Assembly: GCA_964419945.1 (NCBI GenBank)
Contig: CAYQRU010000001.1
Span: forward strand, 29,441-93,440
Reading direction: 5' to 3'
Length of the DNA stretch: 64,000 bases
Source of the DNA: an uncultured Bacteroidales bacterium
Lineage (GTDB): Bacteria; Bacteroidota; Bacteroidia; Bacteroidales; JAAYJT01
Position numbers and translations under genes: made by a program. A model generated the notes under the pieces. That model had not been told where the DNA came from, searched no databases, and worked only from the letters and a program-made list of their open reading frames with translations. Positions 4,142-55,997 of the stretch are shown piece after piece. Each line of letters opens with the position of its first letter. Position 1 is the stretch's first letter.

Positions 4142-4568
4142 ACGATTCTAATATTTTTCAGTGTTAATCAGTGATCTCGAAATGCAGTCAATTAATCAGT
4201 TTCAGGGTGATAACTATATACCTGACATGATACAATATCATATGCTATCAATTGACTGAGCTTTTCCTGTACTTAAAATTGAAGTCAATTTTACCGTTTG
4301 AAACTTATTTTTAATTCTTCCTATGCGGATGGTAAACTAGATAGTGAACCACCCGCCTTTTTGTTATTTGTTAACGAAATGTTAAATTTTTCAGCAGGCT
4401 CAAAATGAAATTACCCCTATACATTGAATATCAGCTTTTTAATATTTTGTTTTAAAAATTATTTAGAAACATTATTAATAACCTATTGTTTACGGCGGTA
4501 TGGTTTAATTACAGGTATTATCACCCCCTTAGTTCTACCGTTTGTCTAACCAAAAAACAAAATCTGTT

Positions 4569-22708: not shown

Positions 22709-24943
22709 ATGAAAAGATTCCACATCGTCCTGATGTTGGTCTTACAACATTTTTCTATCATCGCCCAGGATAATAACCGTCATGTTTCTTGGAGATATTA
22801 CACCACCGGAAACACTGGCATACAGGGTGATTACGCCGAAGCCCTCTGGATTGATCATGATGGCAACCCTTATATTGGTGCCTACAATCCGGGGTGGGAG
22901 GAAGGTGGTTTTGTAAAGTATAAACAATCAGAAAACAGGTGGATTAACTACTCCAACGTGAATTATCCGGTTATTGGAGATATCAACGATGTGGGTGCAT
23001 CGCGAATCAGCGACATGGTGGAGGATGTCAGTGGTGTTTTGTGGATGGCTCACTGGCGTGGTCTTTTAAAATTCGATCCGGCAGTGGGTGCAGGTTCTTT
23101 GCAATTTTGGGGTGCAAACAATTCGATACATCCAGGAGGGCGCAGCCGCGAAATTGCCCTTGCCCCTGATGGTTCGCTGTGGATAGCGGTTATTTCGGTA
23201 ACATGGGGAAATGGTGGATTGGTACACTTTAATCCTGCTACCAACCAGTGGCGCTACTGGGGTTATGGCAGTTCGGCCAACAATTGGCCCAGCCTCGTTC
23301 CTTTTTGCGATAATGTTTCGATACAGGAAAAACCTAGCGGAGGCTATACCGTGTGGGTAGCAGCCTCTGGAGGTGTAATTGCCTTCGACAGCAATACCCA
23401 GCTATTTACCCTCTACACCTTCGATTATAATCCGGGAGAACTTGTCAAAACACCGGGTCATAATTGTGTTGATAACGATAATAATCTTTGGATGATACGT
23501 TTCACCGGAACCGCTCCATTTTACTCACTCGACTACAGAACCCAGGCCGGACAGTGGCACACACCGCCGCAGCCTCCTGTTTCATCAATCCTTAACGAAA
23601 TATGGGCTTTCAAAGCATACGGAAATCTGAATGTATTGCTGGTTGACGGCAACAGCACAGTATGGCATTTTAATGGTGCCTTTTGGGTAAGCAAAGGCGC
23701 CTGGAAGGATGGAGCATACACCTATGCCGTTGATATGGACAACAACGGAAATATCTGGGTTACAGGAGTTGGAGGTGCTGCCAGAAGAAATGCCCAAACC
23801 GGAACCTGGCAGCGTTACCGGATTACAAACAGTTCCCAGATGTCGTACTGGGTAGATGATATTACCATTGATAACCAGGGCAATGTGTGGATGACAGGTA
23901 ATGCAGGACCAGGCGTTGGTGGTTTTCAAAAGTTTGACGGAACCAATTGGAGCAACTTCAATGCTCATACATATGGACTGGGGTTCCCTTTCCCGTTTCA
24001 AACCGATAATGTGGAAGAAATTTGCTACCGTCCGTCAAACAACAACATCGTCATCAATCCTGTGTTTGGTTACCTGCACACCTGGAATGGCAGCTCTTTT
24101 TCATCGCTTAATTATACTCACCACCGTTCGGCTGGCATTGTTGAAGATTCGCAAAACAGACTTTGGAGCCTGGGCGAATATTATAACCTTAAGTATTGTT
24201 CGGGCAACAACTGGGTTTCTGTATCTTTCGATGGCTGGGGTTCACGCATTGTGAAAGATCCCACCCGGCCCGGAACCATATGGGCGAGTTCTGGAGTTCA
24301 GGTGCTACGAACGGATGGAACCTATCAGTTTTCACGCTACAATACCGACTTTCAGCAACTCGATCCGCAGAGTGACCAGTTTACAACGGTGGCTGCCGCC
24401 CCTGATGGCATTGCATGGGTGGGTAGTAACAAAGGCCTTTTCAGGATCAATGCCGGTAACGGTTCTTACCAGTTTTACTCACCGTCGAATTCAAATATCC
24501 CCGGTAATTTGGTTTCACCCCTTGCCACTACAAGCGACGGACGTGTATGGTTCACAAATTTTGGAAGCACCGGCGACCAGGGGCTTGGCTGGTTCGATGG
24601 AATCCAGTTCGGATTCTTTCCCCAACAGCAAACCGGCGGGTTACCTCATGCCCAAATTTACGATATTGAAGTAAAATATATTGAGCATGGCTACGAACTG
24701 TGGATCAGTTGTGCAAGCCGCGGTATTGCTGTGCTTTCGGTAATTGACGATGTGATCAGCGGCGACTCAAACTGCGATAACGCCACCAACGTGCTTGATG
24801 CTATTACCACGGTAAACTACGTTATTGGTCTGAACCCTCAACCATTCTGCTTCAATAATGCCGATGTTTCGCAGGATGGAATGATCAATGTGCTGGATGT
24901 CATAGCGATAGTGAATTTGATTCTCGGGAACAAACAACTCTGA
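22709..24943 (+). CDS. Secreted Reg_prop-type (two-component-regulator-propeller-like) beta-propeller protein with a C-terminal dockerin module and no T9SS CTD.
   Basis: The ATG start gives the signal peptide MKRFHIVLMLVLQHFSIIAQ. Blades of the type DGxxWxxxxxGLxxFD recur (LWMAHWRGLLKFD, IWVTGVGGAARRN, VWMTGNAGPGVGGFQKFD, AWVGSNKGLFRIN, VWFTNFGS). The last ~60 aa contain two DxNxDxxxxxxD Ca-loop plus helix repeats: GDSNCDNATNVLDAITTVNYVIG and ADVSQDGMINVLDVIAIVNLILG. Confidence 0.8.
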   Translation: MKRFHIVLMLVLQHFSIIAQDNNRHVSWRYYTTGNTGIQGDYAEALWIDHDGNPYIGAYNPGWEEGGFVKYKQSENRWINYSNVNYPVIGDINDVGASRISDMVEDVSGVLWMAHWRGLLKFDPAVGAGSLQFWGANNSIHPGGRSREIALAPDGSLWIAVISVTWGNGGLVHFNPATNQWRYWGYGSSANNWPSLVPFCDNVSIQEKPSGGYTVWVAASGGVIAFDSNTQLFTLYTFDYNPGELVKTPGHNCVDNDNNLWMIRFTGTAPFYSLDYRTQAGQWHTPPQPPVSSILNEIWAFKAYGNLNVLLVDGNSTVWHFNGAFWVSKGAWKDGAYTYAVDMDNNGNIWVTGVGGAARRNAQTGTWQRYRITNSSQMSYWVDDITIDNQGNVWMTGNAGPGVGGFQKFDGTNWSNFNAHTYGLGFPFPFQTDNVEEICYRPSNNNIVINPVFGYLHTWNGSSFSSLNYTHHRSAGIVEDSQNRLWSLGEYYNLKYCSGNNWVSVSFDGWGSRIVKDPTRPGTIWASSGVQVLRTDGTYQFSRYNTDFQQLDPQSDQFTTVAAAPDGIAWVGSNKGLFRINAGNGSYQFYSPSNSNIPGNLVSPLATTSDGRVWFTNFGSTGDQGLGWFDGIQFGFFPQQQTGGLPHAQIYDIEVKYIEHGYELWISCASRGIAVLSVIDDVISGDSNCDNATNVLDAITTVNYVIGLNPQPFCFNNADVSQDGMINVLDVIAIVNLILGNKQL
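24761..24940 (+). other. C-terminal dockerin module (two EF-hand-like repeats) of the 744-aa propeller protein.
   Basis: GDSNCDNATNVLDAITTVNYVIGLNPQPFCFNNADVSQDGMINVLDVIAIVNLILG. Confidence 0.75.
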
Positions 24944-41000: not shown

Positions 41001-44000
41001 GAAGCAGGGCAAGTGCACTGAGTGTGAGTTTTGATGTTTCTCAGGAGAACAGAATTACCATTCCGGCTTCAGCGATTATTCCGGCAAACCAGGCAGGAGC
41101 TGCTTTTCAGGTCGCTGCAATCAACAACACCTGGATAGAAGGAAACATTGATGTGGTAATAACGGCTTCAGCCGCCGGCCATCCTGATGCTATTGCAAAT
41201 CTTGCTGTTATTGACGATGAGGTACCTTCGCTAAACTTGAATTTGAGCGTTGGCAGCGCAAACGAAGGTGATACCTTCCAACTGACACTTACAAGGGATG
41301 TGGTTTCGGCCAATCCTTTGAATGTTATGCTGTCTGTCAGCAAGGCCAATCAACTTGTATTACCTGCCAGCATGACAATTCCTGCCAATGAGGCTTCGGC
41401 AGTTATGTCGGTTGAGGTGATAAACAACAGCACACCTGAACTTACTGAGGCTGTTGCCATCAATGCCTCAGCGGTTGGATTTATACCTGCCACTGCAAAT
41501 ATTACCATTCTTGACGAGGATATACCGCAGCTTTCACTCACCATTATTCCCTCTGTGGTTTCTGAAGGAGCTGGCCCTTATGCTTCCTGGGCAACACTGC
41601 AATTGAATTCTCCTGTCATTGCCAATCTTATTGTGGTTATTTCTGCCGAAACAGCAGGCCAGCTATTCTTTCCCTCATCTGTAAGCTTTGCTCCGGGGCA
41701 AATTCAGAAGCAGTTCAATATCGGGGTGGTTGACAATGGAATACTCGATGGTGACAGAACTGTCGCTGTGACGGCTGCTGTGTTTATTTCGTCATGCAAT
41801 TGTGGCGCTCCCCCCGAAACCGGAGGAGCTGATACTCAAAATATTAACATACTTGATAACGATGGTTTGTCGCTTTCGGTAAATTCAACGCCATTTTTGG
41901 TACCTGAAAATCAAACTAACGCAGGATTGCTCACCATCACGAGAAATACAACTGGAGGCCCGCCAATCGCTGTAAATATTCAGCATAATGGCCCAAATGA
42001 AATATTGCTGCCGTCTTCTGCTGTGATTCCTGAAGGAGCTACTTCCGTGAATGTTCCGTTCAGCACACTCGATGATGGGATCAGCGATGGCGATCAGGTC
42101 GTTACAATTTCTGTTACATCCCCCGATTTTACTCCCGGATCGTGTTGGATCATTGTTACTGACAAAAACCTGCCTGATTATGTTGCTCAGGAGCTTACCT
42201 TATCGCAGGCTGAAATCCTTATCAATGATTCTGTGGGTATGAGCATTTGGATCGCAAACAAGGGCTTTGCCCCGGCACCCGCCAACGCCGAAGTCAGGTT
42301 TTACAGATCAGCCAACAACCACCTCGATAACAGCGATCTTTTAATTGCAACCCAAAACATCCCGGCTATTCTGAATTTAGGCGACTCCGTCCAGATTGGA
42401 GCATTCTATAAACCAGTGGATGTTGTGGGCAATTTCTTTATCATTGCATCGGTAAACATGAACGGGACAATTACCGAATTGATCGGGATTAATAATACCT
42501 CATCCGCAGTGCCATTTGCTATCCTTCCCGATTATACAGCTACGGCCTCAGTAGCTGGCGATGTTTTCAACGGCACTGCGCCCATTATCATCACCGGCAC
42601 CACACAAACCGTAACCAGAGGTCCGGTACCCAACAAGGCTGTGGATGTTTACGTGGTTGTTAACGGTACCCGGCGCGTGCTTAATGCGGTAAGTGATCAG
42701 AATGGGACATTCAGTTTGAATTTTATTCCATTGAACGGCGAAGGAGGTGCATACCATGTTGGTGCCTGCTATCCGGGTCAGAATCTGGATGTGGCACAGG
42801 ATGAATTCACAATCCTTGCTGCCCGGCACAATGCTTCAGGTTATATTATCTGGAATATGTGGCTAAACGAAACAAGGGATTTTACACTTGAATTAATGAA
42901 TATCAGCCCGCTCGGACTGAACAATCTTCAACTCGAGGTATTATCTGGCCCCCCTGGTTGTATAGTAAATTTTACACCTTTGAGCTTACTTCCTGGCAAC
43001 GCGACAGCTCTGTTGAATTATTCCGTAACCGCTACTGAAGTTACAACCGGTACGCTCTATGAAGAAGTTAAACTGCAACTTACCAGTGCGGAAGGCACTA
43101 AATTCAGGTTCAGTGCCTGGTTTTTCAGCCAGGCAACCATGGGAAACCTGAAACTTACTCCTGCCTCTCTAAACAAGGCAATGGTCACAAATGCCATCAA
43201 TTATGCTGAATTTGAAATACTCAATAACGGTTTGGCTGAAACCGGGCAAATAACCATTCAATTGCCTCAGGCCAACTGGCTTTCCCTGGCCAGCCCCCCA
43301 ACCATTGAATCACTCATGCCCGGGCAAAAAGCGATAGTAACGCTCAAACTCATGCCCGGCAGCGATTTGCAACTGAATAATCCGATCAGTGGTCAGATTG
43401 CTTTATCCGGTACGAACTCAAACAGTGTTCTGTTACCCTTTTTATTCGAACCCGTTTCGCTTGAAACCGGCAACCTGCTGGTGGATGTGGTGGATGAGTA
43501 CACATACAACACTGTCGCTGCACCCCATTTGCAGGGTGCAACGGTGACGCTGTCGCATCCTTACAGCGGTCAGGTGATTGCACAGGGTATAACAGATGAG
43601 AACGGGCATTTTCTTGCAGAAGGTATCTATGAAGGTACTTATATGTTGCATGTGCAGGCTCCGCAACATGCCAGCTATCAGAATATCGTTTTTATTGAAA
43701 AGGGTGTAACCAGGACTCAACTGGTGTTCATCGCATTCCAGGCTATTACGTATACCTGGCAGGTAGTTCCTACCTTGATTCAGGATCAGTATGAAATAAA
43801 ATTAATCACTGTTTTTGAAACCAATGTACCCGCTCCGGTGGTTGAGATGAACATGCCGGATACACTCCCTCAACTGGGTGTTGGAGAGGTATTTCCATTC
43901 CTCCTCACGCTTACAAACCGCGGGTTGATCACCGCACAGGATGTAGAGATAACATTTCCGGATGATGAGGAATATATGTTTATCGCCAATGTCAATACCC

Positions 44001-47000
44001 TTGACATTCTTCCCAACACATCCGTTCAGATACCTGTTCTCATGAAGCGAAAACCTGATGTAAAATTATCAGGTCGCAGCCTTAATTGCACCGACATAAC
44101 AATTACGAAATACAAATTTGAGTGCGGTCCCGACAACCAGATGCGGGTAGTGGCTGCCTGGAGTATTTATCTTGGCAGGGTTTGTTCAGGTCCGGGTGGA
44201 CCGTCAATACCCTTTTATTGGCCAGTTTTTCCAGGTGGAGGAGGGGTGGGTCCCGGAGGACCCGGTGGAGGTTCTGGCCCGGGATGGGGCCCGGGTTTAG
44301 GACCTTCAACTCCTTACCAAAGCAGCAATACCGGGTGCGATCCATGTATTGCCGAAGCTTTAAACTGTGCACTTGACTGCATTAATCCCATTCCTCCCGT
44401 TCTCGACTGCGGTGCAGATGTATATGCCAATGGCCTGAATTGGTCCAATGGCATTTCGTGTTTCTGGGGACTTGTTGACACCTTCTCAGGTGGATCATTT
44501 GGCTGTGCCTGGTGTATCGGCACAACCATTGGTTGTTTCATCAACCAGGCAATCGGCAATACCAAAGCTGCAGCAGGAAGCCGATATCCTGCCGAACTTG
44601 AGCAGGCATTTGAGGATATGGAAATGCTCGACAAAGCTTTTACTGCCATTGAAAATGCCGCAAAAGAAACCTGCGGGAACGATGATCTGGTTGTCAGGGA
44701 ATTTTTTGGTTCGTTTAAAGATTCAGTTGCACAATATATTGATACTGAAACCCCGATCAATCTTCAGGCACAAAACGATTTGCTGATTTATTTTGCCGGC
44801 AGTGATATTACTGAATCAGAAATTCTTGATTTCATCACTTACTGGAACACCACGCTTCAGGCCCGCGCACTCGGCGTGTACTCTCCATCTCCGGAGTTTC
44901 CTCATATCATTGACACACTTCTGCTGCATCATTATCAATTGCAGCTCGACACAGTAATCCAGTACACAAAAGCCCGGGGTTATAATTCTATTGACCAACT
45001 GTATAATCAAGCAGCAGAAATTTATGCCGGCTATTTACAGGCAAAAAATTCGGCTGTTTGCGCCACAGTAACAGTAGAGTTTTCTCAAACCCTGACAATG
45101 ACCCGGGAAGCCTTTGAGGGAACACTGACCATCTTTAATGGCCATGAAACCGATGCCATGGAAAACATTATGCTTGCACTCGAGATTAAGGATGAAGATG
45201 GAGCAATCAAAAACGATCTGTTCCAGATAAATACGAAATCACTCAATCAAATATCCGGAATTGATGGCTCAGGTATTTTGGAAGCTCTTACTGAGGGTAC
45301 GGCGGTAATTACTTTTATTCCTGAAAGGGGAGCCGCTCCTGATGTACCAAAGTACTATTCCTTTGGCGGAACACTGTCTTACCTCGATCCGTTTACAGGC
45401 GAGATTTTTGAACAACAACTGTTTCCGGTTACACTTCAGATTAATCCAAGTCCTGACCTGTATATTGATTATTTTATGCAGCGTGATATTTTAGGTGACG
45501 ATGCTCTCACACCTGATATCGAGCCCATGGTTCCAGCTGAACTCGCGGTGATGATTGATAACAGGGGAACAGGAACTGCGTATAGCGTAAATATCGAATC
45601 TGCCCAACCCAGAATCATTGAAAATGAAAAAGGACTGCTGATTGATTTTCAGATCGTTGGATCAAACCTGAGTGGAAAACCCAGGCAACTTGGTTTACTG
45701 AATGTTGACTTTGGAGATATTCCTGGTGGCGAAATTGCCATAGGCCAGTGGTGGTTTACGAGTACGTTGCTCGGGCACTTTATTTCTTATGAAGTGTCAA
45801 TCAACCACCTGAACAGTTTTGGAAATCCTGATTTGAGTCTTGTAAGCAGCGTGCAGGTACATGAATTGATCAGGGGCGTAAGTGTGTACGGGCCACCTGA
45901 CGACAGCATCAGCGATTTTCTGGTTAATGATATACCTGATACGCATGACATCCCCGACGCATTATATTATTCGAACGGCGCCATTGCCCAGGTTTATCAG
46001 GCAACTGCATCGCAAACCGATGGCCAGGTCAATATGAGCAACCTGGAAATCCAGCTCACAGTTACACCTTTTACAATGGGATGGAATTACACCAAACTGA
46101 ACGATCCGGGCAACGGACTTTTCCGGATTATCAGTTGCACCCGCCAGGATGGCCAGGTCATCCCACTTGATAATATCTGGCTTACCCACGTTACCATTCC
46201 TGACGGCGGGGAACCGGTTTATGAGAACAAACTGCATTTCCTCGACTACTTTAGCTCGACGGTTCCTTATAGTTATACTGTTGTTTTTGAACCGGGAAAT
46301 CTTGATGTGCCCGAAGTAGTTGCCATCACTGGAATTCCTGCCGGAATCACTGACACACCGGTTATAAATATTGAGGTGGTATTCAATAAGCCCATTGACC
46401 CAGCAACCTTCGACTACGAAGATATGGTACTCAGTAACCAGGGAGGTCCAAACATGATGGACAACTCGGTGATCGTTTCACAGGTTAATGATACTGTTTT
46501 CAATGTGGATATTTCTACCAAAACCACAGCCAACGGTTTTTATGCACTTACCGTTCAGGCAGCCGGCATCGCTGATCTGATGGGTAACTTTGGCCAGGTG
46601 GGAAAACAGGTTACCTGGGTTCAGGCACTGTCAACTCCTGCCATAGTTCTCTTTATCGGACTGCCGGAGGACGGACATCCCATTGATTCGCTTCTTGTTA
46701 TGTTTAACATGCCAATTAATCCGGCCACCTTCACAACAGCTCAGCTGGTATTGACCGGACCTGACGGAATACTAATTCCTGCTGAATCATTGGTGATTTC
46801 GGACGCAAGTATCAACAACATGTTGTTTAAGATCAGCGGATTACTTCCTCTCACATCAGATGATGGTAATTATCAGCTTTTATTTAAACTCACAGAGATT
46901 CAGGGCGAGAATGGAGTAAGTGGCTTGCTTGACCAGCCAGCACAATGGACAGTTTGCCAGGTACCGCCGCCCGCTGCCAATGCAGGGGAAAATGCCACTA

Positions 47001-48787
47001 TTTGCAGCGATCAGACTTATCAGCTAAGTGGGCTTGTTGAAAATGCAGATTCGTTTGCATGGTCAACCTCCGGAACAGGTACATTTGATAACAATCAGGT
47101 CCTTAATCCGGTTTATACACCCAGCCTGGCCGATAAGATTACAGGTGTGGTTCATCTCACACTTACAGCACAGCCACTGCATCCCTGTGCTCCTGTTGCT
47201 ACAGATGTGATGACGCTATATATCACTCAAACCGTTGTAAATTCAGTAAGCGTCAGGGCATCAGCAAATTATATCTGTTCCGGAACAAATGTTGTCTTTA
47301 CAGCTACACCGATTAATGGAGGTTCACAACCAACCTACCAGTGGAAACTGAATGGTGAAGTTGTCGGAACAAATAGCATCATTTATGAAAACAGTAATCT
47401 CTCTGATGATGATGTTGTACAGGTCGTGATGATTTCTTCCCTGCCATGTCCACGCCCGGAAGAAGCCATTTCGAATGCAATAACCATGATTGTATATCCT
47501 TTGATTCATCCTGAGGTAACTCTCACTGCAACTGCCACTGAAATTGTTGAAGGGACCAATGTGATATTCACAGCCACGCCAACCAACGGAGGTATCGAAC
47601 CTTTTTATCAGTGGTTACTTAACGGCAATGCAGTTGGGAGTTATTACAACACATTCGAAAGCAATACCCTGCAGCACGGCGATCAGATTCAGGTATTGAT
47701 GGATTCAGATCTTCCCTGCGCCGTTAATCCTGCCGTTTCGAATATAATTCAGATGACGGTGAATCCTGATACTACTGTGCGATGTCCGGCTGTTGTGGTG
47801 ACTTCAATATACCATCCTCCTTTCCTGCTTGAGGTTTCATTACCTGAAGGCGGTACCTATAGCGGACCGGGTGTAAGCGGTAATATATTTAATCCGGTTA
47901 CGGCAGGTTTGGGAATCCACGTGATAACATACACCTATATCAATCCGGAAACCAACTTTACCAAGAACTGCAACTTCCCACTGGTTGTCAATGATTTGCC
48001 TTTGTCAGTGCCACTTCAAAACATGCTTGTTTCGCATTACAGTGATGTATGTTTTGCAGCCATGCAGACGATAAGCCTTGCCGGTGATGGAACCTACTTT
48101 ATTATTGCTGATAATGCGCAAGCAGAATTTACTGCTGGCAAAAATATTTTATTGCTGGAGGGAACACACGTCAATGCTGGCGCACATGCGATCTTCAGGA
48201 TCGAAACAGGCAACGGCTTTTGCGAACCACATCAGACTCTGGTGCTTCAAAACCACACGCTTACGGGCACGGTTGATACCTGCTTCGCTTCACAGGAGGT
48301 GATATCCCTTGCTGGAAATGGAACAATCTTCATTGTTGATAATGGTGTAATAGCTGAATTTGAAGCCGGAAAACTTATCAGTATGAACGATGTAACACAT
48401 GTTAAAGCCGGAGCTTATGCCCTCTTCAGGATTGAAACCGGTGATGACTTCTGTACCAATTCACGTTCTGTTGTTGCTGGGAGCGATGTAAAACCTGAAG
48501 AAAAAATTATCGGGGACATGAACCACTACCCAAATAGCGCTTTTGAACCTCAGCCTTTCATAATATATCCGAATCCAACCACCGGAATTTTCAACATTGA
48601 ATTTTCTGAACCGGTTACAGATGCTTTCATCGGAATTTATACCATGTTAGGCCAGAAGGTTCTGATCCGGCATTCTGAAGGATCTTCGCACATTGAACTC
48701 AATCTTGCTGCCCAGCCGAAAGGCATTTACATCATTCGCGTTATACAGGGAGAAGCACATCATTCTAAACGGTTGATTAAAAATTAG
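32006..48787 (+). CDS. Giant secreted mosaic surface protein of 5593 aa. It is T9SS cargo and a paralog of the 4569-22604 product.
   Basis: The ATG start gives the signal peptide MNANNINIKNRLLSTIVLLMLIAGAQTAFSQ. By eye: 4 LamG units (2 of them nested inside another module); ~10 choice-of-anchor-D/ASH-like units (LNFGxVxxxxSxxxxLxIxNxGxxxLxI...FxP...G); one canonical PA14 (FQIKWIGKIYAESAGNYQFRSYTDDGLRLYIDGQPV); and CARDB. From 39897 onward it is colinear with gene A through Calx-beta, the Cys-rich linker, the core, Ig units, a duplicated pre-CTD module and the T9SS CTD (IIYPNPTTGIFNIEF...GIYIIRVIQG). Confidence 0.9.
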   Translation: MNANNINIKNRLLSTIVLLMLIAGAQTAFSQNFALNFDGNGDFVNFGNPSGLQITGNQTIEMWIYPTALDARRNPVAKAYGGEGTVTLETDGSLSYYYGTGGGNNNPYQGIGSTPIQANTWTHIAIVRDLTTMRLYWYINGNQVVHIPAQFSYAQSSTLPFYIGRGYVSDFKGMIDEVRIWNVARSASEIVAFKSVGLTGSESGLAAYWPFDEGSGTIISDNTSSGNNGTLNGNTGFVASTAPIIPYQPGGEPFEPVPPTGLPYTIVLSNLTINGEDISYGTQIAVFDDELCVGTTFYDGEPNQSLIAWEADPGQNLAGFTAGNPMSFKFHAAWYSEPVNFDADVTIMKGDGNFGYETFSVVNLNAITTLAPEIMLSAELMNFNAVIVNQSISLPLAFENTGTANLFIGSMQNNTTFFTRSATSLLIEPGTRDTLWITFTPLSVTTYSDILTFVTDDPGLPSVTIPLHGTGLPVPTPQITVTPLNLNFGSIAMNTSKTMVINILNSGNGNLLITNVTSSNTAFSVLGNTAFSLGQNENINVAMSFAPVQAGAYTGQLTIQSNAQNITVPLSGIALQGHFSVVSPTGKPYAVIVENVDIDGFSPLTTDEVAVFDGELCVGVGSYAQGGNSLQLSGNGYVINNNSNAFDLQQLTISAWVYSSNFNQNGFVFEKGPVNSQYSLFFEGSNINFRTYHTSGGYDDFYLNWSSIGIQNNKWNHITATYDGVHKRMYVNGQLKAILSYNKTLRTGQVGQIIGAYGGSGSNSYFFNGNIDEVRVWNHARSVFQIQKEMYRQLVGNEPGLVGYWNFNDGNINNLVAGSTPSYLSGNANTQGIQNIEILTKLMITAWEKDLQLGLPGYTSGNPMSFKVWTEVYDNWVEVETIPEYIVGDGNFGFGQLSIVNLEGTSGLQPDIDVAVENIYVGQVTVGSSVQSILQVTNQGNAPLQIYVSDNSDVFSTDIGNTTIAPLSATNIQVTFAPATAGGYAGLLTISANDPDQPTVTVGLEGFALPAGVANIATSVNSLNFGNVINGTSKTVSLFIINTGTSALTVSNITSGNAVFSVSPTAFTLPNTNDIREVFVTFQPGNKGLFSALLTISSNAPQKQISLSGIGFDNHFGITEPTGIPYTIIVQQTNLQGSILPGDELSVFDGGLCVGMVNSFTGSNTQSVRFNGSNAYLQVPNTASLNPAAITVESWVKTTDGGASRSILSKTNGCASSGYLMWLNQNGVGAGKPGFWVGDGPWLDANVTVHDGQWHHIAGTFDGTTARIYVDGVLSNSRVSTENLSSSNALQIGGSTYCGNLLNGNIDEVKIWNYVLTPQQVQQSMNSIPQANSAGLVGYWPFEGDFDDKSLSNHHTQVLGSPVFEIIAPQLLNELEMIIVAWQADPGNNLPGYTPGNPMSFKLWTGINGFPTELTASANYIIGDGTFGFGQFSIVNLDFNLPAINVDPEEIFVALAEPDSTEVTLTIYNTGTGDLRFSLPDPFTNGKFRASYYYSPGTGASPNFGTFMFEIDDEYIDSSWGNGGPGNGVGNDDFQIKWIGKIYAESAGNYQFRSYTDDGLRLYIDGQPVINQWYDMATTNHYGTVSLSQGFHDLEFHYYENGGWADAYLYWTPPGQAEELVPAANQSWMSISPSSGIIAPAQYVEITISFNSTGLIDGLYAADLLIVNNTSTQSPLVVPTLMNVTGTPQISSSLPEVNFGQVVVNSTLEKSLNIMNIGTQALIIQDIFVQDEINSGFTYQLNDKSFPLSIDPGQSIVTVIAFTPLLPGEVNDTLMILSNAGNAETYLIPLSGSGITPPEIFLTETVFELSYVCNDQFTDSLKIFNFGQDTLSVSMSSDQTWLATNPVQAHIAGGDSISVTIHISTLDLFAGVHEAFLSIQSNDPGQPLLEVLCTLTVTGDPAILCNDFLNMGSANIGDTLVGQLTVANSGCDVLEVFSVGIQSQFPVFSVLNPAFEVQPGDAAILQIAFVPLASNQYNAIITINTNDPATPAFDVVVSATGIEPPKLSVIPQNISEILQSGTTGQESFSVKNTGGQVLEFSTVKDPVNPFMLHLDGNGDYINVVHAPALNPTQEITLEAWIYLIDNVNEFIIGKENSTEGKYRLLVNSSSRLEFKLNNLHVITSNTVVVKNQWYHVAATFDGSTMRIFINGVQDVVQTFDPFTIEPNTDNLRIGRSYQFHYFYGRIDEIRIWSIARNQSEIQSAMYQHLLGSEPELLLYFPILNLTGSIVTDASNNPHNGILFGNPVILGATVPFTDYLTISNGNGNLTANQQQNVLLSLGTAGYFARNYQRQLSVSSNAVINPVQQVTLDFTIEGSSNIVPNPAQITFEDTYIGLMDTLELILPNSGAMAAGITEISFSSPVFSAPVPVSKVFPFSQRTLLIVFEPQLVQLYEATLTISTSDGKSQQIEIPLTGLGLSPPVPDFSPVAANFGQVVINNTSVVGITLSNLGNPPLEVYSYSFSDPAYFSSDLAVPFALNFEQQVQFNVSFTPLNYNAISESMVFNTNVGQVSLPLSGTGTPPDHDLAITQIISPQSGCGLSASEIVTVRIRNFGMLPQNNFDVAYSLNNGADVVETVNQTILSGDVLNYIFSQTLDLAVTGGYGLRAFTMLGSDQNKANDTLSVTITNSPSVGMISDMLPPDSTFSVSEPVVFSWNPAANATFYDLYLWRTNQQKPSIPTVSGITATTYTYLDYLNKNYLYKWQIVARNQCSQSLSPIHVFSFNVFSDLMVTSVDAPVTATSGQPVNISWNVKNFGTGGTGIIPWKDDVYLSPSTFFDVNTAVKVASLSNLSALVQGQSYTNTTTITLDPYLNGNHYVFVRTDVNNTIQEVNENNNIQRTENPMLVSLPPYPDLAVGNIQSLGGNIIPGQQLTVGWTVGNTGDASAIGGWSQRVAIVSDAQTYVLGFVQSIESLDPLVELNLSSTFMVPHQLGMDGEVYLQVRITPNPALIEKPNATANNTALSNQGVLLEQRLFLSLPQPTLPENAGSPIQCIVNRSGSRASALSVSFDVSQENRITIPASAIIPANQAGAAFQVAAINNTWIEGNIDVVITASAAGHPDAIANLAVIDDEVPSLNLNLSVGSANEGDTFQLTLTRDVVSANPLNVMLSVSKANQLVLPASMTIPANEASAVMSVEVINNSTPELTEAVAINASAVGFIPATANITILDEDIPQLSLTIIPSVVSEGAGPYASWATLQLNSPVIANLIVVISAETAGQLFFPSSVSFAPGQIQKQFNIGVVDNGILDGDRTVAVTAAVFISSCNCGAPPETGGADTQNINILDNDGLSLSVNSTPFLVPENQTNAGLLTITRNTTGGPPIAVNIQHNGPNEILLPSSAVIPEGATSVNVPFSTLDDGISDGDQVVTISVTSPDFTPGSCWIIVTDKNLPDYVAQELTLSQAEILINDSVGMSIWIANKGFAPAPANAEVRFYRSANNHLDNSDLLIATQNIPAILNLGDSVQIGAFYKPVDVVGNFFIIASVNMNGTITELIGINNTSSAVPFAILPDYTATASVAGDVFNGTAPIIITGTTQTVTRGPVPNKAVDVYVVVNGTRRVLNAVSDQNGTFSLNFIPLNGEGGAYHVGACYPGQNLDVAQDEFTILAARHNASGYIIWNMWLNETRDFTLELMNISPLGLNNLQLEVLSGPPGCIVNFTPLSLLPGNATALLNYSVTATEVTTGTLYEEVKLQLTSAEGTKFRFSAWFFSQATMGNLKLTPASLNKAMVTNAINYAEFEILNNGLAETGQITIQLPQANWLSLASPPTIESLMPGQKAIVTLKLMPGSDLQLNNPISGQIALSGTNSNSVLLPFLFEPVSLETGNLLVDVVDEYTYNTVAAPHLQGATVTLSHPYSGQVIAQGITDENGHFLAEGIYEGTYMLHVQAPQHASYQNIVFIEKGVTRTQLVFIAFQAITYTWQVVPTLIQDQYEIKLITVFETNVPAPVVEMNMPDTLPQLGVGEVFPFLLTLTNRGLITAQDVEITFPDDEEYMFIANVNTLDILPNTSVQIPVLMKRKPDVKLSGRSLNCTDITITKYKFECGPDNQMRVVAAWSIYLGRVCSGPGGPSIPFYWPVFPGGGGVGPGGPGGGSGPGWGPGLGPSTPYQSSNTGCDPCIAEALNCALDCINPIPPVLDCGADVYANGLNWSNGISCFWGLVDTFSGGSFGCAWCIGTTIGCFINQAIGNTKAAAGSRYPAELEQAFEDMEMLDKAFTAIENAAKETCGNDDLVVREFFGSFKDSVAQYIDTETPINLQAQNDLLIYFAGSDITESEILDFITYWNTTLQARALGVYSPSPEFPHIIDTLLLHHYQLQLDTVIQYTKARGYNSIDQLYNQAAEIYAGYLQAKNSAVCATVTVEFSQTLTMTREAFEGTLTIFNGHETDAMENIMLALEIKDEDGAIKNDLFQINTKSLNQISGIDGSGILEALTEGTAVITFIPERGAAPDVPKYYSFGGTLSYLDPFTGEIFEQQLFPVTLQINPSPDLYIDYFMQRDILGDDALTPDIEPMVPAELAVMIDNRGTGTAYSVNIESAQPRIIENEKGLLIDFQIVGSNLSGKPRQLGLLNVDFGDIPGGEIAIGQWWFTSTLLGHFISYEVSINHLNSFGNPDLSLVSSVQVHELIRGVSVYGPPDDSISDFLVNDIPDTHDIPDALYYSNGAIAQVYQATASQTDGQVNMSNLEIQLTVTPFTMGWNYTKLNDPGNGLFRIISCTRQDGQVIPLDNIWLTHVTIPDGGEPVYENKLHFLDYFSSTVPYSYTVVFEPGNLDVPEVVAITGIPAGITDTPVINIEVVFNKPIDPATFDYEDMVLSNQGGPNMMDNSVIVSQVNDTVFNVDISTKTTANGFYALTVQAAGIADLMGNFGQVGKQVTWVQALSTPAIVLFIGLPEDGHPIDSLLVMFNMPINPATFTTAQLVLTGPDGILIPAESLVISDASINNMLFKISGLLPLTSDDGNYQLLFKLTEIQGENGVSGLLDQPAQWTVCQVPPPAANAGENATICSDQTYQLSGLVENADSFAWSTSGTGTFDNNQVLNPVYTPSLADKITGVVHLTLTAQPLHPCAPVATDVMTLYITQTVVNSVSVRASANYICSGTNVVFTATPINGGSQPTYQWKLNGEVVGTNSIIYENSNLSDDDVVQVVMISSLPCPRPEEAISNAITMIVYPLIHPEVTLTATATEIVEGTNVIFTATPTNGGIEPFYQWLLNGNAVGSYYNTFESNTLQHGDQIQVLMDSDLPCAVNPAVSNIIQMTVNPDTTVRCPAVVVTSIYHPPFLLEVSLPEGGTYSGPGVSGNIFNPVTAGLGIHVITYTYINPETNFTKNCNFPLVVNDLPLSVPLQNMLVSHYSDVCFAAMQTISLAGDGTYFIIADNAQAEFTAGKNILLLEGTHVNAGAHAIFRIETGNGFCEPHQTLVLQNHTLTGTVDTCFASQEVISLAGNGTIFIVDNGVIAEFEAGKLISMNDVTHVKAGAYALFRIETGDDFCTNSRSVVAGSDVKPEEKIIGDMNHYPNSAFEPQPFIIYPNPTTGIFNIEFSEPVTDAFIGIYTMLGQKVLIRHSEGSSHIELNLAAQPKGIYIIRVIQGEAHHSKRLIKN
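39897..48787 (+). repeat. Colinear paralogous segment of ~8.9 kb (C-terminal ~2963 aa of giant B) matching 13953-22604. It carries one extra pre-CTD module copy.
   Basis: See the partner segment. The extra ~73-aa module lies at 48236-48455. Confidence 0.9.
48550..48784 (+). other. Type-A T9SS CTD of giant B.
   Basis: PQPFIIYPNPTTGIFNIEFSEPVTDAFIGIYTMLGQKV...KGIYIIRVIQGEAHHSKRLIKN. Confidence 0.85.
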
Positions 48788-50310: not shown

Positions 50311-52437
50311 TCATTGTGCAAGGATTATATTTACCATGTTTGTGATATCTAGCAGATCAATGTTTCCGCTTGCATTTATATCGGCCTGGTTCACACAAAA
50401 CGGTTGGGGATCATTACCCAGGATTTGACTGATGACAACGATTACATCCATGGTGTTTACCATTCCGTCGCAATTGGCATCGCCCACCAAACCGGATGTT
50501 GATTGCAATGCAATTTGAAATGAACCAGTATGAATCTCAATGGGTTCTAGAGAGTAGTGCTGTGCTCTCAGGCTTCCAAACGATATCAAAACTTGCCGTA
50601 AATCACCGGGCATAACCGCTTCTGAAAGCATGAACTGAAGCATTCCAATTTTTCCGAATCCTGAAATTTGCTGATGATTGTTACGGGTAATTCCTATGTC
50701 GGTAATTCCTGTATTAGCCTGATGCATTACCAGCGACCAAACGCTGCCGTTAAGTTCGCCCATCCAGTTTTCCTGCTGATCAAAAACGGTACTACCAGAA
50801 ACAACAGCCGGAGAATCAATAAAAACGCTGAACCGTATGCCATAAAGGTTATCAATGGGTTTTTCCTGCGACCCTAAATAAACGGGTATCTGAACCTGGA
50901 CGCTATCCAAAAGCTCGGCTTCGGAAGGCACAATGTAGAGATCATACACATTAACCGGGGTAGCTGGCGCGATAGAATTTATTGATATTGCCTTATGATT
51001 GAAGCCATAATTTTGGATGATGGCCATGGTATCATTGATATTTACCATGCCATTGCCATCGGTATCTGCATGTTTGTAGTTAATACCGGTAACTACCGTA
51101 TCAGCCCAATCGGTGGCATATTGCGGGAACCAGTCAAGAGAGGCATTTACCCTTGCCGAACCGTTAGCTCCTGCCGTTACGCCCAGCACAAGGAGGTCGT
51201 CAATGTTCACGGTGCCATCGTAATTTATATCACCTGGCCATACATAATCAATGCCAATACCATTGACAACTCCTGCTGAGTCAGATTTTAAAACAAAAAG
51301 ATCCTGTTCTCCGGCAATCATGTATTCGTTGATCTCGCCAGCCATCACAAATCCTCCATCGCCTGTGGCCCGCATTTTAGTGATGTTGATTGACGAATCG
51401 GAAGCCATGATCATATCACGTCCGATAAATGTACCATTACTGTCGAGCCTGAGCAGAGCTGATTTAAAAAATAAAGATCCGGCCCCCTGAAAACGCTTTT
51501 CTGTCACGAGATACTCTCCGTTTCGCCAGGGTATAATATCCATTGCCTGGGTGTTGAACGGATAGTCAGGATAATTTTTTGACCATAGTACATTGCCTGC
51601 AGCATCCACGCGCATAACGCTGGAATGTTCGGAATTCGGGCTTGAAAACCCGGCAAGTACATAGCCACCATCAGGCAGTTCCTTTACCGACTGTGCGCCT
51701 CGCATCAGTTGGCCGGGCGCATTGTACAGCCTTGTCCATACCGAATCGGCATTCATGTCAAATTTCCACAAAAATGCTTTTGAACTGCTACCCGATCCTG
51801 CTGTGCCTGTGAGCATGAACCCTCCATCGGAGGTAGGCTCAATGGCCGACACAAAAGTTCCGGAGTACCATCCCGGCAATACAACAGGATTCAGCAGCCT
51901 CTGCTCAAGTAAAAACCCATCCTGTGAAATGATAAACATGCGTGGTCTTGCGCCGATGAATCCTTCACCTCCAATGACGATAATCGTGCTGTCGGGCAAG
52001 ATGGTTCCATGCGCAATCAAAGCCGAATTCATCGGTAATATATTCGTCCATTGCGAAGTCCAGAGGGTGTCGCCCGATTGATTGAGTTTTACCAGCCACG
52101 GTGCGCGATTATTGGTAGCAATTCCAACAACAATATAATTTCCATCAGGAGTTTCTAACACTGAGTAGGCATTTTCGGAGTAATTATCCTTACTGATGCT
52201 GCGCTCCCATTGCAACATGCCAGCTTCATTCAGCTTTACAATATAATAATCAGACGTAAAACCTTGATTACCATAGCCTGCAACAATATAACCCTGATCG
52301 GTGGTTTGCCGGATATCGGTGGCAAATTCAGGCCCCGAACCGCCAAAAAATGCTGACCAGGGAAATTGCTGGCTAAATGATGAAGGTGTAAAATAATCAA
52401 GAAGAAGTATAGCAAGAAAAAGGGTGGGTCTTTTCAT
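50311..52437 (-). CDS. Secreted beta-propeller-like repeat protein with an internal dockerin, a cohesin-like beta-sandwich module and a C-terminal dockerin (708 aa).
   Basis: Signal peptide MKRPTLFLAILLLDYFTPSSFSQ. N-terminal repeats are of the type DGGYxxxGxxxx...xxxKLxxxGxxxW. Internal dockerin: GDINYDGTVNIDDLLVLGVTAG ... ADTDGNGMVNINDTMAIIQNYG. A ~165-aa segment (VQVQIPVYLGSQEKPIDNLYGIRFSVFID...GKIGMLQFMLSE...) looks cohesin-like. C-terminal dockerin: GDANCDGMVNTMDVIVVISQILG ... ADINASGNIDLLDITNMVNIIL. Confidence 0.8.
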   Translation of the reverse strand: MKRPTLFLAILLLDYFTPSSFSQQFPWSAFFGGSGPEFATDIRQTTDQGYIVAGYGNQGFTSDYYIVKLNEAGMLQWERSISKDNYSENAYSVLETPDGNYIVVGIATNNRAPWLVKLNQSGDTLWTSQWTNILPMNSALIAHGTILPDSTIIVIGGEGFIGARPRMFIISQDGFLLEQRLLNPVVLPGWYSGTFVSAIEPTSDGGFMLTGTAGSGSSSKAFLWKFDMNADSVWTRLYNAPGQLMRGAQSVKELPDGGYVLAGFSSPNSEHSSVMRVDAAGNVLWSKNYPDYPFNTQAMDIIPWRNGEYLVTEKRFQGAGSLFFKSALLRLDSNGTFIGRDMIMASDSSINITKMRATGDGGFVMAGEINEYMIAGEQDLFVLKSDSAGVVNGIGIDYVWPGDINYDGTVNIDDLLVLGVTAGANGSARVNASLDWFPQYATDWADTVVTGINYKHADTDGNGMVNINDTMAIIQNYGFNHKAISINSIAPATPVNVYDLYIVPSEAELLDSVQVQIPVYLGSQEKPIDNLYGIRFSVFIDSPAVVSGSTVFDQQENWMGELNGSVWSLVMHQANTGITDIGITRNNHQQISGFGKIGMLQFMLSEAVMPGDLRQVLISFGSLRAQHYSLEPIEIHTGSFQIALQSTSGLVGDANCDGMVNTMDVIVVISQILGNDPQPFCVNQADINASGNIDLLDITNMVNIILAQ
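50314..50484 (-). other. C-terminal dockerin module of the 708-aa protein, paralogous to 24761-24940.
   Basis: GDANCDGMVNTMDVIVVISQILGNDPQPFCVNQADINASGNIDLLDITNMVNIILAQ. It shares the linker (N/D)PQPFC(F/V)N.AD(V/I) with the 744-aa protein. Confidence 0.75.
50494..50994 (-). other. Cohesin-like beta-sandwich module between the two dockerins.
   Basis: YDLYIVPSEAELLDSVQVQIPVYLGSQEKPIDNLYGIRFSVFIDSPAVVSGS...ISGFGKIGMLQFMLSEAVMPGD...IEIHTGSFQI has the alternating beta pattern and the xVxVxVxL...IxGxxFxIxYD-like layout of cohesins. This was judged by eye only. Confidence 0.4.
51004..51234 (-). other. Internal dockerin-like module with a long inter-repeat insert.
   Basis: GDINYDGTVNIDDLLVLGVTAG, then a 31-aa insert, then ADTDGNGMVNINDTMAIIQNYG. 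Confidence 0.65.
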
Positions 52438-53519: not shown

Positions 53520-55997
53520 TTACTCTTTCAAAAAGCCATAGTCATACACTTTGGGTTCTATCTTTTTGGCGAGGGTTTTCAGGGCGGAGCGCAGTTGGGT
53601 GATGAGGGCTGTGTAGGTTTCGTCATCGCTTTTGTTGTTCATTTTTCCTTTTTCGTTTCTACCCTGAAAGTGTTCTCTGATGTCGTACAGCGAAGCATTC
53701 ACATTGCAGCCGGGCTGCCGGTGATAATACCTCCAAAGTTCGCGGCCGGCTGCGAAAACCGCTGTTGCTTCCGAAGAAAATTTCAACGGCGTTTCATAAT
53801 GAACCTCCGGCTCAAGTAAAACGGAAAAAATATCAATCGAGAACTTCCCGGGCTTTATCTTCCCCTTGATAAACTTACTCATAAAATTGCTTTCAAACTT
53901 TTCCCTTGCATCCACTTCCTGCTCGGTAAAAGGAATCCAGTGGTTGGTTCCAAATTTCGATTGGATGTTGTTGCTGAATAGAGTATAAGTAAGGCAATCA
54001 TTCTGGAATTCTTTATCGCTTTCCCAGCCGTCGTTTGGAAACAGGAACTGATCACGATCATTGAGCCAGGTGGCTTCGATGCATTTGCGTACGGCAAGGT
54101 AAATGCAGGATTTCAACAAATTTTTCTCTGTGATAGGCTTATAGAATGTTGAGGTTTCGTTGTTTTTGAAATTCTGAATAACAATTTCATTTTGGTGCTG
54201 AAAGTCATTGCTGTTGCAAGCAAGATAGCCAAGGCTTGATTTATCTTCCTGCCATGAAGGGCGTAACCAATCATTCAGGAACTTCACACGATCATAGCTC
54301 ATAATAAGTTTTGTTCCGAAAAATTCTCCATTTGCATTATAAACATCAACATTGAACATTTTGAATAATTCACTAAAAGAGGAGTCCCAAATCATAAAAC
54401 CAATAGGAAAACGACCAGCAACATTATCAAACGTATTCGCAGGAACAATAAATGCCCTTTTCAATTTTGGTTGAAAAGCCCTTCTGAAATCAATAAAATA
54501 GGGTGATTGCAAAATTTTGGTTTTCGAAAAATGAGCAATAATACAACCATCAATTTCTTTATAGACACGGAAAATAAATTGAACGAACATTTCTCTTTTG
54601 GAGAATTTCCCAATCATGGTTGAATATCTTTGATGAGTCAGGGTTTCATTTGAAACTCCTTTTTTAGCATCTCTCTTTAATGTGCTTCCAGCCTCCGCAT
54701 ACGGCGGATTAATATACATCACCAGCTTCCGGCGTTTCTCAGGGTTGTTGATAATATCCTGAAGTGGCTTAGGAAGTTTGGTAAACTCATCGTTCAGAAA
54801 ATCGAACTGGAAAACATGGTCTTCGAGGAGGTTGGCTCCGTTTTTAATGCGGTCTTTCATTACCTCCACATCCTGTGTATCGAGCGTGGAAGCCCAGATA
54901 TTGTATTTGTTGATAAGCCCTGTAAGCAGGTTGCCGGTCCCGGCGGCGCAATCCCAGATGTAATATTCGTCCTGCCAGTCTTCGCCCAGCACATCGGTAA
55001 GGTATCTTTGCGAGAGTTCCACCCACATCTGCGGCGTAAAGAAACTGCCTTTGCGTTCGCGCACATCCTGCGGCACCAGCAAATCGCGGCGTTCTACAAT
55101 GTAATCCCAGTATTCTTCCCTGGGCGGGCGCTCGTATTTGTTCCAGAACTGGTTGTGTGCTTTCTGGCTATCATTAAAAGAAGTCGTGCGGGAGCTGAAC
55201 AGTCCGATTTCGTCAATCTTTCGATCCAGTTCATAATGGTCTTTTTTAAGAAGTACAAAGAGTTTTTCTTTGAGTGATTCGTTTTCGATGGCCAGCAGAT
55301 CGGCCAGGTAGAAATCGCCGTCAATGATTCCGCTCTTTTTGGCAAGCTCCCAGTTCACCGAAATGCTTGGTTTCACCACACTCAGCCATTTGTTGTAAAT
55401 CACCACAAAGTTGTTTTTGTCAATCCTGATCTTGTTCAACCCAAATTTGCCAACCACAAAGTTGTTTTTGATAAAGCGCTTCAGGTCTTTATCATCTTTC
55501 TCAAAATTGAAAAGCAGGGCTTTTTGATCAATGCTGCTTTTTACCTTTGCATACAACAGTTGAAATTCTTTAGTTTCGTGGTTTGAGGGTGTTACATTCC
55601 AGTTGAAATCGTTCAGGTAAAATACATCCTGAATGTCGTTGTAAGCGATGAAGGCAATTTTTTCGGCATCAAAAGCGCCCAGCATGGATGGAGGGAGGTG
55701 TTTGCCGAAAGTACGGGCCTTGCCGATGGTTAGGATAAGCTGCACAATGGATTTATAAATATCGGACGAACCTTTTTTGGCTTCGGCCCACAGCAGCGAT
55801 TCCTTTTCAATCGAGGAGGTTTCGCTTTGGTGCATGCTTACACAGAAGTCAACATCTCCGATGATACGGGTGCAGTCGTAAATCCAGAAATAATCGTGCG
55901 CCACTTTGTTTTTCAGTCCTTCCTCTCTGATGTCTGCGTATTTCATTTGTTTGTTGGTGTCGATGATTTGGAAAGCGGGGGGGGTAAAGTCTTGCAT
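53520..55997 (-). CDS. Gamma-class N6-adenine DNA methyltransferase, 825 aa. It is a candidate fused type IIG/IIL-like restriction-modification enzyme.
   Basis: SAM-binding motif I WDCAAGTGNLL lies at 54927-54956 on the minus strand. Catalytic motif IV NPPY (MYINPPYAEAGS) lies at 54699-54710, downstream of motif I, which is the gamma order. The N-terminus GDVDF...LLWAEAKKGSSDIYKSIVQL fits a D...ExK nuclease layout like MmeI-family enzymes. About 390 aa after NPPY could be a target-recognition region. Confidence 0.75.
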   Translation of the reverse strand: MQDFTPPAFQIIDTNKQMKYADIREEGLKNKVAHDYFWIYDCTRIIGDVDFCVSMHQSETSSIEKESLLWAEAKKGSSDIYKSIVQLILTIGKARTFGKHLPPSMLGAFDAEKIAFIAYNDIQDVFYLNDFNWNVTPSNHETKEFQLLYAKVKSSIDQKALLFNFEKDDKDLKRFIKNNFVVGKFGLNKIRIDKNNFVVIYNKWLSVVKPSISVNWELAKKSGIIDGDFYLADLLAIENESLKEKLFVLLKKDHYELDRKIDEIGLFSSRTTSFNDSQKAHNQFWNKYERPPREEYWDYIVERRDLLVPQDVRERKGSFFTPQMWVELSQRYLTDVLGEDWQDEYYIWDCAAGTGNLLTGLINKYNIWASTLDTQDVEVMKDRIKNGANLLEDHVFQFDFLNDEFTKLPKPLQDIINNPEKRRKLVMYINPPYAEAGSTLKRDAKKGVSNETLTHQRYSTMIGKFSKREMFVQFIFRVYKEIDGCIIAHFSKTKILQSPYFIDFRRAFQPKLKRAFIVPANTFDNVAGRFPIGFMIWDSSFSELFKMFNVDVYNANGEFFGTKLIMSYDRVKFLNDWLRPSWQEDKSSLGYLACNSNDFQHQNEIVIQNFKNNETSTFYKPITEKNLLKSCIYLAVRKCIEATWLNDRDQFLFPNDGWESDKEFQNDCLTYTLFSNNIQSKFGTNHWIPFTEQEVDAREKFESNFMSKFIKGKIKPGKFSIDIFSVLLEPEVHYETPLKFSSEATAVFAAGRELWRYYHRQPGCNVNASLYDIREHFQGRNEKGKMNNKSDDETYTALITQLRSALKTLAKKIEPKVYDYGFLKE

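Follow-up and report, generated by a model that had tools for sequence, protein, structure and literature searches.

A Bacteroidales propeller protein with a conserved dockerin-cohesin cassette ends in a dockerin where its orthologs carry a type IX sorting domain

Introduction

In the cellulosomes of Gram-positive bacteria, cohesins and dockerins pair as the classic plug and socket. Here we describe a predicted secreted protein of 708 amino acids (aa) that holds modules of both kinds, encoded by an open reading frame (ORF; 50311-52437, minus strand) on a 64,000-nucleotide stretch of DNA from an uncultured Bacteroidales bacterium (GenBank assembly GCA_964419945.1, contig CAYQRU010000001.1, positions 29,441 to 93,440), which we call the window and whose numbering is used throughout. 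Adaptor scaffoldins carry one or more cohesins together with a C-terminal dockerin of different specificity. Like the clostridial members of this group (Acetivibrio cellulolyticus ScaA, Ruminococcus flavefaciens ScaA/ScaC), the 708-aa protein is apparently secreted and combines a cohesin fold with a C-terminal type-I dockerin, and the best structural matches of its cohesin module are the cohesins of adaptor scaffoldins. Unlike them, it has a single cohesin which is preceded by a dockerin-like module of its own, and neither a carbohydrate-binding module (CBM) nor a dockerin-bearing glycoside hydrolase is found nearby. Its host is a diderm organism with a type IX secretion system (T9SS) and not a Firmicute, and its cohesin module is not matched by the Pfam cohesin profile.

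Cohesins and dockerins also occur outside cellulosomes, and Peer et al. 2009, as cited in PMC8542988 and PMC6487960, are said to have surveyed these non-cellulosomal modules. The present protein resembles such examples in that its modules sit on a polypeptide unrelated to cellulose breakdown, and a cohesin of Archaeoglobus fulgidus (2xdh) and two of Clostridium perfringens (2jh2 and 2vo8) are among the structural matches of its cohesin module. It differs from them in that the modules form a fixed cassette of constant spacing, which lies just before the T9SS C-terminal domain (CTD) in thousands of Bacteroidota proteins. In the usual T9SS route the CTD is cleaved, after which the cargo is covalently anchored in lipid-linked form. 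The CTD (Por_Secre_tail, PF18962) is what defines type-A T9SS cargo. It is present on the orthologs of the 708-aa protein, on nearly all relatives of its cassette and on four neighbouring proteins, whereas the 708-aa protein and a second propeller protein of 744 aa, encoded 25 kb away, are without it.

A precedent from a diderm organism is Candidatus Stygibacter (Cloacimonadota), for which Williams et al. 2021 predicted a cellulosome-like system from the genome (PMC8542988). In that system, signal-peptide proteins that end in a dockerin include S8 and C25 peptidases, a T9SS-type CTD anchors the cohesin protein, and the scaffoldin of 3,755 aa contains tandem cohesins and CBMs (PMC8542988). Its protease-rich, non-cellulolytic cargo resembles the proteins that carry the terminal dockerin subtype described below. 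The differences are that we see no multi-cohesin scaffoldin, that a dockerin-like module of its own accompanies the cohesin, and that the cohesin carrier itself lacks a CTD. Rumen Bacteroidetes, too, have been reported to contain dockerins (PMC6487960). Cohesin-dockerin pairs are nevertheless regarded as rare in Bacteroidota, to which one rumen survey attributed 1-9% of them (PMC6487960).

Results

A terminal dockerin occupies the position of the CTD

Along the 708-aa protein, a predicted signal peptide is followed by a seven-bladed propeller, the internal dockerin-like module, the cohesin fold and the terminal dockerin (Table 1). Full-length orthologs with 47-59% identity were found among metagenome-assembled genomes of Bacteroidales and Lentimicrobiaceae and among metagenomic proteins, and the ORF can therefore be taken as a real gene. 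The closest of these orthologs (L001-L005, P0006 and P0017, of about 730 aa) match it in signal peptide, propeller and cassette. At the C-terminus, where the 708-aa protein has its dockerin, they carry a CTD of 85-89 aa. Residues 652-705 scored 34.5 bits against Pfam Dockerin_1 (PF00404, cutoff 22.9), with canonical calcium loops starting at aa 653 and 686, and by these sequence features the module is a true type-I dockerin. Neither the 708-aa nor the 744-aa protein gave a match to Por_Secre_tail in Pfam or to our custom CTD hidden Markov model (HMM). Neither is followed by a CTD remnant, and the 244 nt 3' of the stop codon held no decayed CTD. Judged from this comparison, in this lineage a dockerin of a subtype different from that of the cassette has replaced the CTD of the orthologs.

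The arrangement is rare. Dockerin-type loops at the C-terminus were seen in only 2 of 267 cassette proteins (P0013 and P0026) and at none of 80 genome loci; the loop pair at the end of P0013 and P0026 is dockerin-like and of another kind. One further ortholog ORF, L007:2789-4732, terminates directly after the cassette and has neither CTD nor dockerin, on a contig that continues, and could be either another CTD-less variant or the product of a frameshift. The exact 708-aa protein has no entry in public assemblies, a scan of GTDB genomes with its full sequence returned no close relative, and the nearest cassette loci were Bacteroidales/Lentimicrobiaceae-like.

The internal dockerin-like module and the cohesin form a widespread cassette

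An exhaustive HMMER search with residues 395-650 matched 5,304 cluster representatives (clusters at 50% identity) at E<=1e-3, of which 3,949 remained at E<=1e-10 and 240 at E<=1e-30, and most matches covered both modules. A word-indexed homolog search had returned 3 matches, and a search with the terminal dockerin 2 fragments; the counts given here rest on the exhaustive HMMER search and a metagenome scan. Separate HMMs of the two halves detected 360 domains of the dockerin-like kind and 360 cohesins in 354 proteins. Every one of them was paired, with a spacing, measured between the HMM ends, of -2 to +5.7 residues (5th to 95th percentile). The original prediction had taken the internal dockerin and the cohesin for separate components of a purpose-built adaptor; these results describe them rather as one conserved cassette.

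What follows the cassette is nearly uniform. About 75-100 residues lie downstream of it in 136 of 157 copies, and a Por_Secre_tail CTD was identified after it in 9 of 10 proteins in a Pfam scan, in about 260 of 267 proteins, and at 78 of 80 genome loci. Nearly all precomputed annotations of cassette homologs likewise list Por_Secre_tail. What precedes the cassette is variable, the passengers including cadherin/Big_9, SprB/PKD, BNR, Sortilin and DUF5122 propeller regions. All hosts are Bacteroidota (Bacteroidales, Saprospiraceae, Chitinophagales, Flavobacteriales and Sphingobacteriales). Some members, namely P0004 (1915 aa), P0007, P0009, P0013 and P0026, contain two or three cassettes in tandem. 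The databases name these proteins only as "T9SS type A sorting domain-containing protein" or as hypothetical, and neither Pfam nor NCBIfam models the cassette. Full-text literature searching turned up no description of a dockerin-cohesin-CTD cassette or of a swap of a CTD for a dockerin.

The first half of the cassette has two canonical calcium loops (DINYDGTVNIDD at aa 403 and DTDGNGMVNIND at aa 458). Against Dockerin_1 it scored 19.0 bits, below the cutoff, and its loops are 55 residues apart, as compared to 33 in the terminal dockerin. Its helices were predicted at 413-420 and 467-475 with a predicted local distance difference test score (pLDDT) of 86-97, and residues invariant across the family include V399, P401, G402, D403, D414, R429, W436, W444, D458 and D469. 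With D/N/S expected at loop positions 1, 3, 5, 9 and 12, calcium-loop residues are canonical in all four dockerin repeats of the protein (starting at aa 403, 458, 653 and 686), and in the AlphaFold2 models each loop is followed by a helix. The presence of two dockerins in the 708-aa protein, as originally proposed, is borne out.

The second half of the cassette (aa ~496-646) had no Pfam match even at E<=10, PF00963 included. The profile check proposed with the original prediction had a divided outcome, in which PF00404 recognised the terminal dockerin, the internal module and the dockerin of the 744-aa protein stayed below the cutoff, and PF00963 found nothing. An AlphaFold2 model of aa 395-650, built on an alignment of 24 sequences including homologs, had a mean pLDDT of 87.5 and a predicted template modelling score (pTM) of 0.85. 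The cohesin fold is an elongated nine-stranded beta-sandwich of the jelly-roll kind. The top 48 Foldseek matches of the model in the PDB were cohesins without exception, types I, II and III and non-cellulosomal ones among them, with E-values down to 3.4e-8 and a target TM of up to 0.78. In addition, the family profile weakly matched the sequences of two PDB cohesins (5lxv_A, E 0.013; 4uyp_A, E 0.034), and precomputed PF00963 matches exist on three homologs (P0153, P0185 and P0224). Because of these fold matches, weak profile matches and annotated homologs, the middle module is, at the level of the predicted fold, a cohesin that has diverged too far for the Pfam profile, which agrees with its earlier description as cohesin-like.

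The pTM of 0.85 suggests that the cohesin packs against the adjacent dockerin-like module; the linker between them was modelled with lower confidence (block-mean pLDDT 54-75). Since the two modules are strictly paired, their spacing is constant and the pTM of the two-domain model is high, we infer that together they make up a single compact unit, of which an intramolecular dockerin-cohesin pair would be the simplest form. If the cassette is indeed such a unit, its cohesin is probably occupied in cis and would therefore not be free for terminal dockerins. An HMM search of the window, giant proteins included, found no other cohesin or cassette module.

The terminal dockerin belongs to a separate subtype

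The 708-aa and 744-aa proteins end in dockerins that are 45% identical over 56 aa (pairwise E 4e-18) and have the linker NPQPFC in common, confirming the paralogy that had been noticed between them. The 744-aa protein matched Reg_prop with 41.1 bits, and its dockerin, with loops at aa 686 and 719, scored 21.5 bits, just below the Dockerin_1 cutoff. The HMM of the cassette dockerin gave the terminal dockerin of the 708-aa protein only 5.8 bits, which places the two in different subtypes.

The metagenome scan gave 175 relatives of the terminal dockerin, 39 of them distinct and close (at least 60 bits). Of these close relatives, 20 have the dockerin at the extreme C-terminus, 14 continue into a module of about 115 aa and a CTD, one continues into a Fib_succ-like domain, and four are cut by the contig end. 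A pair of cysteines, one in the NCD of the first calcium loop and the other in the PFC of the inter-repeat linker, is kept in 36 of the 39, and a disulfide between the two is possible. The subtype is carried by S8 and M14 peptidases, Omp28-like proteins, a BNR propeller and PKD/Ig proteins, with no glycoside hydrolase among them. Tandem arrays of genes with the same dockerin subtype, encoding S8 and M14 peptidases and Omp28-like proteins, were seen at L090 (contig LSQX01010894.1), L091/L092/L094 and L084; L090 has four such genes in succession, and contig LSQX01010894.1 holds three separate loci.

When 131 metagenomic ORFs bearing this subtype were searched, none matched the cohesin-only HMM, and the whole-cassette HMM gave one weak partial match. 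The beta-rich module of about 115 aa (…ESDGTLAGLQFE…GKLxGxIFSFDNTPIPAG…NLNAEEV…) stands between the dockerin and the CTD in 14 distinct metagenomic proteins (for example L084:2067-5813, L090:5873-8293, L094:1629-5822 and L100:3-3215). It is absent from the window and has no sequence match in Pfam or the PDB. We considered whether it might be a hidden cohesin and rejected this as evidence, since hhalign gave a probability below 2% against the cassette cohesin and no PDB sequence matched. Two ORFs (L082:618-2198 and L110:1328-2344) carry the dockerin subtype followed by a region of about 220 aa which by eye resembles the Fibrobacter succinogenes major paralogous domain (GTVTDIDGNxYxTVxIGxQxWMxENL).

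Signal peptide and propeller of the 708-aa protein

The N-terminus (MKRPTLFLAILLL...SFSQ) resembles a Sec signal peptide on reading alone. AlphaFold2 placed a helix of low pLDDT at aa 5-15, and the N-termini of the orthologs align with the signal peptide region. In the full-length model, residues 27-384 form 28 strands, corresponding to seven blades of four strands each, which bears out the propeller repeats of the original prediction. Copies of the blade motif (T/P)DGG(Y/F) lie 48-56 aa apart, near aa 47, 97, 147, 203, 255, 305 and 359, and five of the seven blades were picked up by a repeat HMM. Relatives align to this region in shifted, overlapping fashion, as is typical of repeats. Matches to DUF5122 (24.0 bits, cutoff 27, E 4.5e-5) and to the delta-60 repeat TIGR02608 (29.9 bits, cutoff 76.5, E 3.7e-7) were both below cutoff. 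The top PDB fold matches in Foldseek were seven-bladed propellers, namely CylK (7roo, E 1.5e-16), PLL/PHL lectins and integrin alpha, and the seven-bladed fold is well supported as a model. CylK, a Friedel-Crafts alkylating enzyme with 15% identity to the propeller, ranks above the lectin propellers.

Genomic context

Four neighbouring proteins, of 6020, 5593, 1378 and 2124 aa, carry CTDs according to the custom HMM, and on this sequence evidence the host is supported as a T9SS organism, as had been supposed. They belong to a cluster on the plus strand at 5-48787 (ORFs 5-4141, 4542-22604, 22709-24943, 25549-31923 and 32006-48787). These giant, presumably secreted cluster proteins contain Laminin_G_3 domains (in 7 and 4 copies), HYDIN/ASH/Cep192-type Ig domains, CARDB, PA14 and beta-helix regions. 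The 744-aa gene sits in the middle of the cluster, among these adhesin-like T9SS proteins. The 708-aa gene lies apart from it, between genes for a GNAT acetyltransferase and a SpoU methylase, and the housekeeping genes near it include rpe, a sigma-70 gene and genes for PNPase, a TolC-like protein and AcrB.

In the large ORFs of the window no glycoside hydrolase or CBM3 family was detected, in keeping with the earlier remark that no glycoside hydrolase is visible nearby; with one cohesin module and neither of these families, the window does not present a cellulosome. An 825-aa ORF (53520-55997, minus strand) had no Pfam match at E<=0.001. Its NPPY motif (YINPPYAEAG) is of the kind usually seen in N6-adenine DNA methyltransferases, and the ORF may encode a restriction-modification fusion enzyme.

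Table 1. Predicted modules of the 708-aa protein and the related dockerin of the 744-aa protein
Feature	Residues (aa)	Window position	Strand	Basis or remark
Sec-type signal peptide	1 to ~23, MKRPTLFLAILLLDYFTPSSFSQ	52369..52437	-	Basic N-terminus followed by hydrophobic core (read from sequence)
Seven-bladed beta-propeller, putatively of DUF5122/delta-60-repeat type	27-384	51286..52359	-	AlphaFold2 strands, blade motif, Foldseek
Internal dockerin-like module, first half of cassette	~399-481	50995..51243	-	Two EF-hand-type calcium loops with ~22 extra aa between them
Short linker from dockerin-like module to cohesin	~482-495	50953..50994	-	Low pLDDT; spacing tightly constrained in the family
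Cohesin-fold beta-sandwich, second half of cassette	~496-646	50500..50952	-	AlphaFold2 and Foldseek
Terminal type-I dockerin, Cys-pair subtype (NCD...PFC)	~650-708	50314..50490	-	Dockerin_1 and loops; position of the CTD in orthologs
Terminal dockerin paralog on the 744-aa Reg_prop propeller protein (ORF 22709-24943)		24755..24928	+	45% identity over 56 aa

Discussion

Our preferred reading, to which we give a probability of about one half, is that a self-associated cassette acts as a pedestal and that a dockerin has taken the place of the CTD, tethering the 708- and 744-aa proteins non-covalently to a partner encoded elsewhere. The 708-aa protein would be a member of a large family of Bacteroidota T9SS surface proteins, in which a passenger, here the propeller, is followed by the cassette. 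The two halves of the cassette would bind each other within the same chain, giving a rigid, calcium-stabilised pedestal beside the anchor point. If they do, the cohesin would therefore not be a free socket. The lineage-specific terminal dockerin would then attach the 708- and 744-aa proteins to a partner that the window does not encode. We infer that the 708-aa protein is located at the cell surface.

Several points weigh against this reading. The 360:360 pairing is a biased count, because it was made on sequences fetched with the whole cassette. The pTM counts as indirect evidence that dockerin and cohesin pack together, and the terminal dockerin, modelled without alignment depth, has a pLDDT of 38-51, so the model is silent on how it might dock. 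Neither the window nor related loci yielded a partner for this dockerin. Finally, how a CTD-less protein crosses the outer membrane of a T9SS organism is left unexplained, as it is in every model that relies on docking.

One alternative, which we consider improbable, is a domain-swapped lattice, in which the dockerin-like module would engage the cohesin of an adjacent molecule and not its own, building chains or sheets on the surface; the 708-aa protein would take part through its cassette, the terminal dockerin serving as a second valency. The reduced confidence of the inter-module linker and the location of the cassette beside the anchoring CTD in almost every member are consistent with this arrangement, and tandem cassettes such as those of P0004, P0007 and P0009 would permit daisy-chaining, but the tightly conserved linker length and the confident, compact monomer model fit a cis unit better.

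We are similarly doubtful that the modules are structural spacers, that is, calcium-stabilised EF-hand and Ig-like folds without recognition, on a soluble periplasmic or released propeller whose terminal dockerin would be a stabilising cap or a ligand-binding (e.g. carbohydrate) module. The fold specifically matches cohesins in all of the top 48 cases and not generic sandwiches, the calcium-loop residues are canonical in all four repeats, and the two modules co-occur so strictly that a lack of interaction between them would be difficult to account for. What speaks for spacers is that the Pfam cohesin model misses the module in the window, that the internal dockerin has a large insertion and scores below the cutoff, that no cohesin partner was found for the terminal subtype, and that the absence of a CTD argues against standard T9SS export.

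The original prediction had suggested that the cohesin is a free socket, binding the protein's own terminal dockerin in trans to give head-to-tail polymers, or the dockerin of the 744-aa protein, or both, as a minimal self-contained network. It is true that one secreted polypeptide holds a cohesin fold and a true dockerin, that the same dockerin subtype occurs on a second secreted propeller 25 kb away, that this is the sole cohesin detected in the window, and that the gap of only ~6-8 residues between cohesin and terminal dockerin may disfavour binding in cis and favour it in trans. We nevertheless hold this to be unlikely, since in thousands of proteins without such a terminal dockerin the cohesin is always accompanied upstream by a dockerin-like module of its own, the cassette is predicted to be compact, and the terminal dockerin is of a different subtype that, by the cohesin-only HMM, did not co-occur with the cassette cohesin in any of the 131 metagenomic ORFs (one weak partial match to the whole-cassette HMM). 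Neither polymerisation nor recruitment of the 744-aa protein is therefore supported.

Returning to the pedestal and tether that we prefer, part of the network idea can be kept. The modules are there, and so is the architecture of an adaptor scaffoldin, with cohesin and dockerin in one polypeptide; the cohesin probably pairs with the internal module beside it, and a cohesin-dockerin network is plausible with a partner that probably lies outside the window. A broader scheme, which we offer as speculative and improbable, is a widespread T9SS-coupled system of surface assembly in Bacteroidota. CTD-anchored proteins would provide the sockets, either through the cassette or, in this lineage, through a dockerin with the module of about 115 aa, and CTD-less proteins ending in a dockerin (the 708- and 744-aa proteins and many peptidases of related metagenomes) would plug into them. 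Within such a scheme, the dockerin-ended proteins might even be carried over the outer membrane in folded form, in complex with partners that bear a CTD.

The individual modules, non-cellulosomal cohesins and dockerins, and a genome-based precedent in Cloacimonadota were already known. To these the present analysis adds a dockerin-cohesin cassette that is common and conserved: at least 5,300 clusters have it, and it sits beside the signal by which T9SS surface proteins are anchored. The most distinctive point, which the original prediction had missed, is the replacement of the orthologs' CTD by a dockerin, so that the 708-aa protein, together with a set of metagenomic peptidases, ends in a dockerin and not in a secretion and anchoring tag. 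If these dockerins do mediate attachment, that would pose the question of how CTD-less proteins exit the periplasm, and they would constitute a second, non-covalent route of protein display on the surface of Bacteroidota.

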